From Candidatus Brocadia sp. (GTDB lineage Bacteria > Planctomycetota > Brocadiia > Brocadiales > Brocadiaceae), in the NCBI GenBank assembly GCA_021650915.1, contig CP091279.1, positions 960,001 through 992,000 on the forward strand: 32,000 nt of DNA. Direction: 5' to 3'. Below, one piece after another: positions 14,045-31,958 of this stretch. The position numbers were made by a program, and so were the translations under genes. Position 1 is the stretch's first letter. The number at the start of each line of letters is the position of its first letter. A model generated the notes under the pieces. The model was given only the letters and a program-made list of their open reading frames with translations, searched no databases and was not told where the DNA came from.

Positions 14045-14141
14045 GGGAGTGCATGTCGGCTGGTGTCGGCGACGGACTTCAAATCCGGTCTGTCCCGCTT
14101 CTAGCGGGATAGGTGGGTTCGATTCCCACACGCTCCCGCCA
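14045..14141 (+). tRNA. selC: tRNA-Sec (selenocysteine, anticodon UCA)
   Basis: The sequence is GGGAGTGCATGTCGGCTGGTGTCGGCGACGGACTTCAAATCCGGTCTGTCCCGCTTCTAGCGGGATAGGTGGGTTCGATTCCCACACGCTCCCGCCA. The anticodon loop is CTTCAAA. The long variable arm is TCCCGC/GCGGGA. The T arm is GTGGG-TTCGATT-CCCAC (5 bp). The acceptor stem is extended (7 bp plus one C-A), the D stem is 6 bp with a 4-nt loop, and G73-CCA is encoded. Confidence 0.85.
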
Positions 14142-22577: not shown

Positions 22578-28692
<6,115 letters not shown>

Positions 28693-28875: not shown

Positions 28876-29163
28876 TTAAACAATCAAAGGCCCGTCCTGT
28901 TCAACAGACGGTTTTGCGCCAACGTGCTCCACACGATGCTTATAGTTGGCGCCAAGGTAATAAAATCTCAGGCTGTCTTTCTCGGGGTCAATCTCTGAAA
29001 TCAATCTCGCCTTCAGCATTGTCCACTGAGCAGGATCAACAATGCACTCAAACACCGAATACTGCACCCGCTGTCCGTAATCCTTACATGCGCGGGCAAC
29101 CCTTCGCAGGCGGCGCTGTCCGGTATCATCAGATGCAACATCATAGCTTATAAGCACAAGCAT
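28876..29163 (-). CDS. cas2: CRISPR-associated endoribonuclease Cas2
   Basis: [42 protein letters not shown] is the canonical Cas2 N-terminus. The RBS AGGAGTGAAT precedes ATG 29163; the ORF-track start 29208 adds an implausible extension. Confidence 0.92.
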
Positions 29164-29186
29164 ATTCACTCCTAACTCAGGCAAAA

Positions 29187-29217
29187 AGATACAAAGGCTC
29201 AGAGGCACAAAGTTTAA
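29187..29217. repeat. Left arm of the inverted repeat bounding the four-helix-bundle gene
   Basis: AGATACAAAGGCTCAGAGGCACAAAGTTTAA matches the reverse complement of 29641-29670 (AGAGACAAAGGCACAAAGGCACAAAGTTAA) at about 25/28 positions plus a 1-nt indel. Confidence 0.75.
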
Positions 29218-29259
29218 TCAAATATACAAATCCATAAGCTCCTCATCTTCCATTTGTTA

Positions 29260-29625
29260 CTATGTACCTAAGCAATTTCCTACTTTTTTGATTAAACTAC
29301 TGAGCATTCTTTCTATCTCCCTACTCTGTTCATAAATCTTTTCAAAATGTTCTTTTGATAAATACCCTAAATTTAAACAAATCTCCAATTGAGTTTGCAA
29401 TTCATATAAAGAGCCAATTGCTATCTGTAAAAAACGAACATAATCATTTGTAGAATATCTGCCATATCCTTCTGCAATATTACTTGGTATTGATACCGCA
29501 CTTCTTCTTATTTGCGATACCAATCCATAGAGTTCTTCTTTCGGGAGCAATCTTGTTATTGAATAAACATTAGTTACCAACACCATTGATTTTTGCCATA
29601 CAACGAGATCCCTATAGTGTCTCAT
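29260..29625 (-). CDS. Four-helix-bundle protein (23S rRNA intervening-sequence protein / Avd-like family)
   Basis: YRDLVVWQKSMVLVTNVYSITRLLPKEELYGLVSQIRRSAVSIPSNIAEGYGRYSTNDYVRFLQIAIGSLYELQTQL is the textbook pattern of this family (PF05635/TIGR02436, recalled from memory). Confidence 0.85.
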   Translation of the reverse strand: MRHYRDLVVWQKSMVLVTNVYSITRLLPKEELYGLVSQIRRSAVSIPSNIAEGYGRYSTNDYVRFLQIAIGSLYELQTQLEICLNLGYLSKEHFEKIYEQSREIERMLSSLIKKVGNCLGT

Positions 29626-29640
29626 TTTGATTGTCCCTTC

Positions 29641-29670
29641 TTAACTTTGTGCCTTTGTGCCTTTGTCTCT
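29641..29670. repeat. Right arm of the inverted repeat bounding the four-helix-bundle gene
   Basis: TTAACTTTGTGCCTTTGTGCCTTTGTCTCT lies between the cas1 stop (29679) and the start of the four-helix-bundle gene. It contains the internal tandem TGCCTTTG x2. Confidence 0.75.
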
Positions 29671-29678
29671 ATTAATTA

Positions 29679-30710
29679 TCACTTCCATAGAAAAGGCGGG
29701 TAATTGTCCATATCTCCGCGTAAATAACGGGCCATGAGTAATGCCTGTATATGAAAGAGCAGCCCCACAGTTACTTTCTCATTCAAAAACGGATGCAGTA
29801 TCTCTTCCTGCTTTCTCTTCTGGTAGGCCACCAGGACGGCCTTTCTCGTGTCATCATCCATCCACACTGCGCCCGATTCCTTCTTCTGAAACCCTTTCGC
29901 CTGCACCTGGCCGAGATTGATCAGGGAGAGCGTCAATCGGTCTGCAATGAAAGGGCGAAATTCCTCCATCAGGTCAAGCGCCAGGCCATATCTGCCCGGG
30001 CGGTCTCGGTGCAAAAAGCCAACCGCAGGGTCAAGCCCTACGCCCTCAAGCGCGGAACGCACGTCATGCATCAGGAGGGTATACAAAAAAGAGAGCAGGC
30101 AGTTTACCGTATCCAACGGAGGCCTCCTGTTTCTTTCCCGAAAGCGAAAATCGTCTTTCTGTGAAGTAATCAATTGATTAAAGACACCAAAGTATGTGGA
30201 TGCGGACTCCCCTTCTATTCCGCGTGAAATATCCAGTGTCAATTCAGCATTTAGCCGCACGATGTAATGGGCAAGCCTCTGAGAAGCCTTTGAAACCGCA
30301 TCAGCGTCAATCTTATCCGAATGGTCTCGTAATGCGCGCGAAAGCACCGTGCGACAATTTGCTATTTTACCGGTCAATACGGCACGAGCTATTAATGCAG
30401 AGGATTTTGGGTCATCAGCCCTGCGGTACTGCTCGCGCCTCAAAAGCACGTTGCCCGACACCGGGCCCTGCACCTTTGCGAGAAAATCGCCGGTTTCCGT
30501 CAAAAAACTGATTGCCACCTCCTTCTCAGCGCAGAATCCCATTAAGTAAGGGCTGCACGAGACCTGGCCAAAACAGACAATCCCGCCGAGGGTATGAACC
30601 GGGATGGTCAGTTTCACCTCACCCTCAACCTTCACCACCACCGTCTCACCCTCCTTGGCAAGATACGCCCCCTGCGTTGTGACGAATAATGTGTTCAGGT
30701 GTCTTTTCAT
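29679..30710 (-). CDS. cas1: CRISPR-associated integrase Cas1 (type I-C-like)
   Basis: The 343-aa protein starts MKRHLNTLFVTTQGAYLAKEGETVVV and carries GIEGESASTYF...RNRRPPLDTVNCLLSFLYTLL...GFLHRDRPGRYGLALDLMEEFRP (Cas1 catalytic E/H/D region). Confidence 0.95.
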   Translation of the reverse strand: MKRHLNTLFVTTQGAYLAKEGETVVVKVEGEVKLTIPVHTLGGIVCFGQVSCSPYLMGFCAEKEVAISFLTETGDFLAKVQGPVSGNVLLRREQYRRADDPKSSALIARAVLTGKIANCRTVLSRALRDHSDKIDADAVSKASQRLAHYIVRLNAELTLDISRGIEGESASTYFGVFNQLITSQKDDFRFRERNRRPPLDTVNCLLSFLYTLLMHDVRSALEGVGLDPAVGFLHRDRPGRYGLALDLMEEFRPFIADRLTLSLINLGQVQAKGFQKKESGAVWMDDDTRKAVLVAYQKRKQEEILHPFLNEKVTVGLLFHIQALLMARYLRGDMDNYPPFLWK

Positions 30711-31282
30711 TCTTTTGTCCTATTCTTTCTTTTTTCAGATCGTGCCCGGTAGAGCCTTTCTGTGAACCCACCCTCTTTCAGAAAGGTCTTTTCCAATGCC
30801 CGCAACTGCTGGTCGAGCAGGTAGTTTGTCTGGTGAATCAGGCAGATCATGGTGTTTGCCGCCACTTCCGGAGGCGAAGCCTCCAGATAGGTCTTATAAG
30901 TCTCATAAGACCTATTTTTACTATGCGCAAGTTTGCGCACAGCAAGCGCCTGCTCATGCTCTTTTCCCCAGAGAGGCAGCTTGCGCTGCCTCAAATAATC
31001 CTGAAAGTCAAGAAGCAGTTCTTCAAGGCTTGCCCGTGCCACGCCGACAAGCTTTAGTTCGGTTTTTTTAGAAGTGCCTGAAGCCATACTCCCTTCGGCA
31101 ATATTCTGCTTGCCGCTACGCGCCGCCTGCACCATCTGATCGTGGGTGCGGGAACGGCGGTCGATGAATCGGTCGCAGAATACTATTGTAGCATCATAAA
31201 CAATCTCTGACATTTTGTAGGACTGCAGTTCCCGATACCCGCCGTGCGGCGGGATAAGCGGAGATTCTTTATTATCAGTCAT
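30707..31282 (-). CDS. Four-helix-bundle protein with C-terminal suffix domain (23S rRNA IVS / Avd-like family)
   Basis: YRELQSYKMSEIVYDATIVFCDRF...THDQMVQAARSGKQNIAEGSMASGTSKKTELKLVGVARASLEELLLDFQDYLRQ...LLDQQLRALEKTFLKEGGFTERL matches the four-helix-bundle-plus-suffix architecture. ATG 31282 lies inside AATGACTGA, overlapping the cas4 stop, and its stop overlaps the cas1 start (ATGA). The ORF-track start 31303 is also possible. Confidence 0.8.
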   Translation of the reverse strand: MTDNKESPLIPPHGGYRELQSYKMSEIVYDATIVFCDRFIDRRSRTHDQMVQAARSGKQNIAEGSMASGTSKKTELKLVGVARASLEELLLDFQDYLRQRKLPLWGKEHEQALAVRKLAHSKNRSYETYKTYLEASPPEVAANTMICLIHQTNYLLDQQLRALEKTFLKEGGFTERLYRARSEKRKNRTKE

Positions 31283-31958
31283 TTTGTGCCTCCTCTTTTG
31301 CATCAGATGCGGAATCCATCGCCCTCATCAGATAATTACTTACCCTGCTGCTCACCTTCGGCATGCACAGATTTAGCAATGAACAGAGTTTGCACTTCTT
31401 TGAATATTCCGCCTTCGGGGTAATACCGGATGCAATGAGTTCATGCACCTTCCTTGAGGCATTCTCTGTCTCAGTCCGCAATGCTTTATCAAAAACCACA
31501 TCCATACGGCGACGGGTTTTGCCATAAAAAATAGCGCCAGATGGAATATTTCCGCCCAACATTTCTTCAAGGCAAATTCCTTGAGCGCAAAGCTGAATTG
31601 CAAAGCTAAGTTCATGACGAAGATATCCTCTTTTATACTCAACAGGGAACGGCAACCATAAACCGGATACGCCTTCAAGTTTAACTCCGCCTGTTGCCGT
31701 CTTATGAAACTCCACCATATCAGCCTTGCCGATGAGTCCAAGAACGAGGGAACGCAGCCAGACACTACGAGCAATCCGCACACTTCCGCGCACCTCCGAA
31801 GCTGATTCATCATCCACTCGTTCATGAAGGATAGAACCCTCAGCGGTCATTACATTGTCTTCCCAGACGCGCTCAATGAAATGCAATGCTGCACGGCGTT
31901 CGCAAAAAGTGAAATCGGATAGCGCGGAGATGGGGATCAAGTCATCTTCTGAATACAT
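31275..31958 (-). CDS. cas4: CRISPR-associated exonuclease Cas4 (RecB-like, Fe-S)
   Basis: There is an N-terminal Cys (FTFCERRAAL), the RecB motif GKADMVE...EYK, and a C-terminal CKLCSLLNLC (C-x2-C-x5-C). Confidence 0.9.
   Translation of the reverse strand: MYSEDDLIPISALSDFTFCERRAALHFIERVWEDNVMTAEGSILHERVDDESASEVRGSVRIARSVWLRSLVLGLIGKADMVEFHKTATGGVKLEGVSGLWLPFPVEYKRGYLRHELSFAIQLCAQGICLEEMLGGNIPSGAIFYGKTRRRMDVVFDKALRTETENASRKVHELIASGITPKAEYSKKCKLCSLLNLCMPKVSSRVSNYLMRAMDSASDAKEEAQND

Follow-up and report, generated by a model that had tools for sequence, protein, structure and literature searches.

In a 32,000-nucleotide (nt) stretch of the genome of Candidatus Brocadia sp. (contig CP091279.1, positions 960,001 to 992,000; hereafter the window), the genes cas1 and cas2 of a type I-C CRISPR locus are separated by a spacer that carries a gene for a four-helix-bundle (4HB) protein between two long inverted repeats, the arms. 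We consider it probable that this spacer is a selfish, horizontally mobile cassette akin to those intervening sequences (IVSs) of 23S rRNA that bear an open reading frame (ORF), with arms that would pair in the mRNA into a putative substrate of RNase III. Comparison with related loci indicates that the cassette was inserted between the stop codon of cas1 and the ribosome-binding site (RBS) of cas2; by the same comparison it was recently exchanged between lineages and is far younger than the surrounding cas genes. A mobile IVS-like cassette had been proposed in a preliminary description of this DNA, and the proposal is strongly supported by an empty site, a drop in GC content, low synonymous divergence (dS), sharp boundaries relative to one related locus, presence in other operons and arms that recur throughout the family.

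On the minus strand the order of the operon is cas4, an ORF of the TIGR04258 family, cas1, the 4HB ORF, cas2, the leader and the CRISPR array. With the start of cas2 corrected to the ATG at 29163, the cas1-cas2 spacer comprises 515 nt (29164-29678). The features are as follows:

31275-31958, minus strand: cas4 of the type I-C locus
30707-31303, minus strand: TIGR04258 '4-helix suffix' ORF of 198 amino acids (aa)
29679-30710, minus strand: cas1 (type I-C), the upstream flank (PF01867, E=1.5e-104; TIGR03640, E=5.6e-159)
29679-29681, minus strand: stop codon of cas1, abutting the cassette
29164-29678, minus strand: whole cassette, equal to the entire cas1-cas2 spacer, 515 nt, AT-rich, the unit of recent exchange
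29643-29673, minus strand: 5' arm in transcript sense, purine-rich tandem 8-nt units (ACAAAGGC)n
29626-29642, minus strand: leader within the loop, 17 nt, with the 4HB RBS AAGGGA at 29634-29639, as read from the sequence
29260-29625, minus strand: intact 4HB ORF, 366 nt / 121 aa (23S_rRNA_IVP / TIGR02436)
29215-29259, minus strand: 3' trailer within the loop, 45 nt, with degenerate sense-orientation units GGTACATAG and AACAAATGG
29184-29214, minus strand: 3' arm in transcript sense, pyrimidine-rich, complementary to the 5' arm at 27/31 positions
29164-29183, minus strand: cassette tail TTAGGAGT.AAT, with the cas2 RBS GGAG at 29169-29172
28876-29163, minus strand: cas2, the downstream flank, start ATG at 29163 (PF09827, E=6.6e-27)

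The 4HB ORF is a full-length match to PF05635 (E=5.3e-43, 146 bits, cut-off 33.8) as well as to TIGR02436 (E=2.8e-42, 143 bits, cut-off 24), and the nearest solved structure to its product is the pentameric XCC0516 (PDB 2GSC, E=4e-26). Ratios of nonsynonymous to synonymous divergence (dN/dS) of 0.15-0.44 relative to its relatives, and of 0.15-0.2 for the deeper pairs, indicate that the protein is under purifying selection. A repeat search returned one outstanding inverted pair (29184-29214 and 29643-29673), with arms of 31 nt each that are complementary at 27/31 positions (87%) and lie 428 nt apart. This is the inverted repeat that had been described earlier at 29187-29217 and 29641-29670, with coordinates and quoted letters that match the sequence, and the stem that it was proposed to form does enclose the 366-nt ORF, along with the 17-nt leader and the 45-nt trailer. 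Each arm is made up of about 2.5 to 3 copies of the 8-nt unit. The 22-nt core ACAAAGGCACAAAGGCACAAAG, with up to three mismatches allowed, is present in the 32 kb at the two arms only (expected number 0.00 from 100 shuffles), and the 9-mer unit GGCACAAAG is likewise confined to the arms within the window. The RBS of cas2, which the preliminary description had placed just outside the stem, is indeed found 11 nt beyond the 3' arm. The cassette tail that contains it is common to the closest filled sites and unlike the spacers of empty sites, while the 4HB leader is conserved in two of the related loci (L001 and L110).

The metagenomic relative L097 has an empty site, with cas1 and cas2 DNA that is 95.0% and 96.9% identical to that of the window and a spacer of 9 nt (TGA-GGTGAAGAG-ATG). 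A junction that lacks the insert despite near-identical flanks, which had been suggested as a check for insertion, therefore exists. Many relatives with 49-87% identical Cas1 have a cas1-cas2 spacer of 1-18 nt, and all outgroups with Cas1 less than 75% identical and a readable junction are without the 4HB gene, most of them having spacers of 1-18 nt. The GC fraction is 0.28-0.36 across the spacer of the window compared to 0.5-0.58 in cas1 and cas2, a fall from about 0.53 to about 0.31. L110 and L118, whose cas1 is 76% identical to that of the window, contain a cassette with 97.8% identity. Overall, cassettes with 97-98% identity (dS 0.06-0.07) are found at loci whose cas1 and cas2 are 76-89% identical (cas1 dS above 1.6). 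The dS between the window and L110 was 0.07 for the 4HB gene, 2.6 for cas1 and 2.7 for cas2, while the corresponding values for L001 were 0.056, 1.6 and 0.55. The dS of the cassette is 8- to 38-fold below that of the flanking cas1 and cas2, ratios that are imprecise and in spirit lower bounds because dS above approximately 1.5 is saturated. Closer examination of the alignment between the window and L110 revealed an identity of about 0.8 that jumps to 0.93-1.0 with the base directly after the cas1 stop codon and drops again where the cas2 RBS is reached; the stretch of recent identity ends just beyond the arms. Since the non-coding leader, trailer and arms are conserved as strongly as the 4HB ORF, the low dS of the 4HB gene is a sign of recency and not of codon constraint. 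The arms themselves differ between copies by unit-sized indels, with 12 nt gained in L110 and 16 nt, equal to two 8-nt units, gained in L001, and the trailer of L001 has a 16-nt insertion, which is the length of two units. Judging from such comparisons, the two arms undergo concerted evolution, in which units are gained and lost.

In the Cas1 tree, loci with filled, empty and otherwise-filled sites are intermingled and the presence of the cassette is patchy. L110, which is filled, and L112, which has a 71-nt element instead, share 98.2% identity of their cas1 DNA. The 4HB gene is frameshifted in L132, it is split in L035 (3230-3390), L098 and L151 by MITE (miniature inverted-repeat transposable element)-like inserts that measure about 160-250 nt and have terminal inverted repeats of their own, and only a remnant consisting of a gene fragment and the 3' arm is left in L100. 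Gain, decay, loss and re-gain at one site correspond to the life cycle of a selfish element. Other occupants of the spacer, all small and unrelated to the cassette, were observed among L105, L109, L111, L112, L113, L120 and L129. The occupants in relatives include G/C-rich hairpins resembling repetitive extragenic palindromic (REP) sequences of 54-85 nt overall (hairpins of 54-69 nt and a separate 71-85-nt element that contains GTCATCCTGAGCCTGTCGAAGGA), a palindromic MITE of 115 nt, and a pair of ORFs that by eye resembles a RelB/YafQ-type toxin-antitoxin system. Across these loci the cas1-cas2 spacer is evidently a hotspot for selfish elements. As a separate observation, a gene encoding a Y1 (IS200/IS605-type) transposase is located directly downstream of cas2 in the cassette-bearing L004 (4791-5159).

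The arms were then considered for the 4HB family as a whole. For 98 4HB ORFs from Planctomycetota, Nitrospirota, Bacteroidota, Firmicutes, Acidobacteriota and others, the 110 nt upstream were scored against the reverse complement of the 110 nt downstream; locus sets were samples of up to 80 per scan, and the strands of neighbours were inferred from the longest open frames. The scores of 77 of the 98 ORFs were above the 99th percentile of shuffles (median 33 compared to a null of 15.4 +/- 2.8), and 64 of 89 unique cassettes outscored all 264 control segments from the same loci. The median score was 33 for arms within one cassette and 16 for arms of different cassettes. A period of 8 nt was found for the arm units of 29 cassettes and a period of 7 nt for those of 17, with unit sequences that are specific to lineages (GGCACAAAG, AGGTTCAAAG, AGTTGCTGAGT, GGGACTA/GGGACTT, AGGCCATA, GTAGGCA, AGTGGTT and others). 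Median lengths are 32 nt for the arm and 477 nt for the cassette, and purines make up 69% of the 5' arm on the sense strand. In most cases the arms directly adjoin the ORFs next to them, and 63 of 67 cassettes between co-directional neighbours are on the strand of these neighbours. Among the other genomic contexts, two assemblies, including a Nitrospiraceae metagenome-assembled genome (MAG), have 4HB homologues that are 76-81% identical between yebC and ruvC, with arms of the same unit family, and further genes are located beside an alcohol dehydrogenase and beside a PAS kinase. A tblastn search of phage records (n=50,697) returned no 4HB match, while 37 matches, mostly cyanobacterial, were obtained in plasmids. 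One of the plasmid copies (L174, gamma plasmid of Nostoc PCC 7120) is located beside insertion sequence (IS) elements and has no clear arms. Taken over the sequences compared, the arms are a hallmark of the element and its family rather than of the window locus. Many database ORF calls for the family, among them P0079, P0087, P0109 and P0119, have spurious N-terminal extensions, such as GTEAQRHKV, which are the translated purine-rich 5' arm (GGCACAGAGGCACAAAGG...), and peptides of this kind could quickly mark arm-bearing 4HB copies.

The gene for the structurally characterized relative, of the XCC0516 type in Xanthomonas campestris, lies between accB and accC (L170:1420-1875) and is flanked by arms as well (GGGAATCGGGAGTGGAGAATCGGGAATC upstream and CCCATTCCCCATTCTCGACTCCCTATTCCC downstream). 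Exactly this upstream arm is listed as repeat #15 by Rehm et al. 2015, in their supplement (PMC4692102). These authors reported 186 GGGAATC repeat sites in X. campestris, with 70 convergent pairs, took them for putative G-quadruplex elements whose function is unknown, and also covered the GGGGA(C/T)T repeats of Nostoc (PMC4692102). In a term search of their main text the 4HB family was not mentioned, and XCC0516 appears only in the supplement, where it is named as a neighbouring gene and called 'conserved' (PMC4692102). The groES-groEL spacer holds their pair #16/#17, which is inverted and has no ORF inside, so arm-only versions exist. A 4HB copy on a plasmid of Nostoc edaphicum is flanked by (GGGAACA)3 and (TGTTCCC)5. 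Like the arms of the cassettes, the Xanthomonas and Nostoc repeats are 7-nt tandem units in operon spacers and often form convergent pairs; unlike the arms of the window, they differ in unit sequence, were described without a link to 4HB genes and in some pairs contain no ORF. The short tandemly repeated repetitive (STRR) heptamers of cyanobacteria are comparable short tandem units.

Because the cassette has the orientation of the operon, has no promoter or terminator of its own (no sigma-70-like promoter or intrinsic terminator was predicted inside the cassette of the window) and supplies an RBS for cas2, we infer that it is transcribed within the cas4-cas1-cas2 mRNA by read-through from the cas promoter. 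The arms would pair in this transcript to a stem of approximately 27 bp, which RNase III could cut as it does in the homologous IVS of Coxiella. Cut in this way, the transcript would yield a free 4HB mRNA and distinct cas1 and cas2 messages, and the RBS in the cassette tail would keep cas2 translatable. Processing of the stem by RNase III, which the preliminary description had offered as a way to uncouple cas1 from cas2, has mixed indirect support from the folds and arm mismatches described below; it may actually occur, but we lean somewhat against it. Movement of the cassette may involve recombination via the arms or flanks, or an enzyme acting in trans. The predicted arm-arm RNA duplex has an energy of -35.4 kcal/mol, and the spacer folded alone retains the stem, which is worth 26.9 kcal/mol. 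With longer sequences the pairing probability of the stem depended on the context that was folded (approximately 1.0 for 29180-29680, 0.65 for 29100-29750, 0.53 for 29000-29900 and 0.01 for 29150-29700). The last of these segments is the one that the preliminary description had suggested folding. A rival local fold in the trailer region reaches -23.6 kcal/mol. In minimum free energy (MFE) structures with 150-nt flanks on each side, a stem of 17-35 pairs was present in 7 of 8 same-site cassettes of relatives, the window being the exception. According to these models the stem is competitive in its context, while its formation is not guaranteed. An Rfam scan of the window with gathering thresholds assigned the cassette to no family and returned a selenocysteine tRNA elsewhere as the sole match (RF01852, 67.2 bits; plus strand, 14045-14137); an E-value scan gave one match at chance level.

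Several observations weigh against a mobile cassette with arms that act in the mRNA. Relative to L001 the raised identity runs on into cas2 (about 89%) and the right boundary is less sharp, so ordinary recombination also acts in this region. No clear target-site duplication is visible between filled and empty junctions, and the original junction is unreadable since the cassette replaces the whole native spacer. The high identity of the cassettes could in part reflect gene conversion between resident copies instead of fresh insertion. Each of the three 4HB sequences that were looked up (P0011, P0036 and P0079) was found in a single genomic context and the 32-kb window has one copy of the cassette; these sequences thus give no instance of a 4HB cassette that transposed to multiple copies. 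The profile matches of the 4HB protein were restricted to 23S_rRNA_IVP and a weak match to bAvd, without a known nuclease or recombinase motif. With respect to the RNA, two of the contexts that were folded, one of them the whole cas1-cas2 RNA of 1835 nt, gave an MFE structure that lacks the stem. Among the arm mismatches across cassettes (60 sense-wobble, 70 antisense-wobble and 150 transversions) no preference for G-U pairs on the sense strand was found, a pattern that lends no support to selection at the RNA level.

The absence of a G-U bias is one of the points in favor of a rather unlikely but serious alternative, in which the arms are the DNA-level termini of a foldback or MITE-like transposon with the 4HB gene as cargo, are paired or recognized as DNA by a host or trans-acting enzyme, and form an RNA stem only incidentally. 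This alternative departs from the preferred reading solely in the level at which the arms act. It is favored by the change of both arms in whole 8-nt units, which resembles replication slippage, by the ORF-less inverted heptamer pairs in operon spacers of Xanthomonas, such as that of groES-groEL, and by the MITEs and REP-like hairpins in the cas1-cas2 spacer of relatives. A second type of cargo points in the same direction. GxxExxY ORFs (TIGR04256, PDDEXK_3) with inverted (CACAGAG)n arms occupy the cas1-cas2 spacer in L157 (467-982) and L176 (1467-1998, a Nitrospirae MAG), and their arm units of the CACAGAG/GGCACAGAG type resemble those of the 4HB cassettes and are found in the same host lineages. 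The 138-aa protein of one GxxExxY element is identical in at least six genomic contexts (L180-L187), and the element has sharp outer terminal repeats of 12 bp (GTAATGTCAAAA and TTTTGACAATAC). Near-identical copies at different sites were thus seen for the GxxExxY element but, among the three sequences looked up, not for the 4HB cassette, which in addition to its single contexts has neither a visible target duplication nor outer terminal repeats beyond the arms, and no transposase nearby. The shared orientation of cassettes and neighbours together with the purine content of the 5' arm suggests that transcription matters, and the rRNA-borne relatives are demonstrably processed as RNA (PMC4990558). 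Either level of action is conceivable for the arms, as a stem cut by RNase III or, in DNA, as foldback termini.

Far less probable is a domesticated accessory of CRISPR adaptation, in which the 4HB protein works with Cas4, Cas1 and Cas2 and the inverted repeat is a host structure that sets the Cas1:Cas2 ratio. The same position in several divergent type I-C loci, the second 4HB-type gene (TIGR04258) in the operon, the purifying selection seen in the deeper pairs and the report of 23S_rRNA_IVP genes in several cas locus types (PMC3936711) would agree with such a role. However, the 4HB gene is missing from the closest relative (L097) and from many relatives with 74-87% identical Cas1, while in others it is frameshifted, interrupted by a MITE or reduced to a remnant. 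The same subfamily with its arms is also found in yebC-ruvC and other unrelated operons, and the presence of a family member in accB-accC likewise shows that the association is not specific to cas genes. In addition, the spacer elsewhere holds unrelated selfish elements (the RelB/YafQ-like pair, REP-like hairpins, a MITE and the GxxExxY cassette), and the cas genes on either side are much older than the cassette. A further possibility, that the arms are simple-sequence or REP-type repeats of the ordinary intergenic kind and lie on both sides of the 4HB gene by chance, is refuted, since, even though heptamer and octamer repeats are common between genes in some genomes and most of the GGGAATC sites of X. 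campestris have no ORF between them (PMC4692102), the arm unit is found nowhere else in the window, most family members exceed every same-locus control, arms match their own partner and not those of other cassettes, they accompany the gene into different operons, and the block of recent identity with L110 stops just outside them.

The closest known counterparts of a mobile cassette of this kind are the ORF-bearing 23S IVSs of Leptospira and Coxiella burnetii; that of C. burnetii has 428-444 nt, an S23p ORF, a 28-bp stem interrupted by a single mismatch and a single bulge and a low GC content, and is cut midway along the stem by RNase III (PMC4990558). The window cassette shares with it the PF05635 ORF, a similar size (515 compared to 428-444 nt), a long terminal inverted repeat (27/31 compared to the 28-bp stem), a GC content below that of the host, a sporadic distribution with signs of horizontal transfer and decay of the ORF in some lineages (PMC4990558). 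In contrast, it is located in an mRNA spacer between protein genes and not in helix 9, 25 or 45, its arms are arrays of 8-nt tandem units, and it supplies an RBS for the downstream host gene. Excision by RNase III is a feature of the IVS, while the cassette of the window is known from its sequence and predicted folds. The window accordingly has the PF05635/TIGR02436 ORF and the long complementary termini of an IVS, but not its 23S location, which was rejected because the cassette lies between cas1 and cas2. The sarcin-ricin motif, a mark of 23S rRNA, was absent from the first 96 related loci, and Rfam revealed no rRNA in the window. Arms inside 23S genes, for which the preliminary description had suggested a search, were not found among the loci examined. 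PF05635-family ORFs have also been noted in rRNA insertions of bacteria of the candidate phyla radiation (CPR).

Inverted arms that are arrays of short tandem repeats are known from the FB foldback elements of Drosophila. The 4HB cassette resembles MITEs and foldback transposons in its inverted arms with variable numbers of tandem units, its small coding core, which can be absent, and its patchy distribution with empty sites, but differs from them in showing no target-site duplication, identified transposase or multiple copies. With homing-endonuclease genes, inteins and group I introns it has in common a near-identical element at one site in divergent hosts, empty alleles and degenerate copies, whereas the 4HB protein has no recognizable nuclease domain and there is no self-splicing RNA or intein. 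Of the features expected from mobile elements, an empty site in a close relative, boundaries that match an insertion and an element younger than its flanks were all found. The Avd protein of diversity-generating retroelements (DGRs) has a homologous four-helix-bundle fold, which is reflected in weak matches to bAvd (30.8 bits) and NF033474 (29.5 bits). An identity as DGR Avd was rejected, as these scores are below the cut-offs of 40 and 80, respectively, and the neighbours are cas1 and cas2 and not a reverse transcriptase or template-variable repeats. Zhang, Doak and Ye 2014 (PMC3936711), in the passages on this family, reported 23S_rRNA_IVP genes in cas loci of types I-B, I-E, II-A and III-B as candidates for CRISPR-associated functions, including one between cmr3 and cmr2 in Pleurocapsa. 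Unlike the present account, these passages do not deal with flanking repeats, empty sites or mobility (PMC3936711).

Several features of the neighbouring CRISPR locus were also recorded. The TIGR04258 gene shares 29 nt with the end of cas4 and 4 nt with the start of cas1 and has a host-like GC content. No arms were detected around it (30707-31303), with inverted-repeat scores of 10-15 that equal the background. In relatives it is located in either the cas4-cas1 slot or the cas7-cas4 slot, the former of which is often filled by a RhuM-family gene in its place. In most loci the TIGR04258 protein is 83-86% identical where the adjacent Cas4 is merely 55-59% identical. The CRISPR array (22609-28692) contains 91 repeats (GTTTCAATCCACGCTCCCGCGCGGGGAGCGAC) and 90 spacers. 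Five spacers in a row are duplicated as a block (26332-26625 and 26923-27216), another spacer is present twice (22707 and 23894), and a 166-nt 'spacer' probably hides a degenerate repeat.

Proteins of the 23S IVS family are among the commonest products of bacterial genes of unknown function and have been read as rRNA curiosities or as candidate CRISPR accessories. The pair of filled and empty sites, the 38-fold contrast in dS with cas1 and the sharp boundaries together show that the gene moves within a cassette bounded by repeats, with operons as its landing sites, and the data argue that the 23S_rRNA_IVP genes in cas loci are passengers. More tentatively, and with some doubt on our part, the 4HB and GxxExxY cassettes, which have similar arm units, lineage-specific termini of 7-8-nt tandem repeats and a location in spacers of co-transcribed genes, could constitute one pan-bacterial class of foldback-type elements. 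The ORF-bearing 23S IVSs would be the rRNA-resident subset of this class, its arms and ORF-less derivatives would explain the excess of heptamers in Xanthomonas and Nostoc, and its arms in mRNA would be RNase III sites that cut operons, here splitting cas1 from cas2. In the open-access literature we did not find a description of repeat-bounded 4HB cassettes in mRNA operons, of their tandem-unit arms or of the link to the Xanthomonas and Nostoc heptamers, although an earlier description is possible. The findings provide a testable origin for the ORF-bearing rRNA IVSs as well as for the over-represented heptamers of Xanthomonas and Nostoc, and they caution against guilt-by-association annotation of 4HB genes in defence islands. 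For the CRISPR systems that harbour them, selfish elements in the cas1-cas2 spacer may alter the co-expression of both adaptation proteins.

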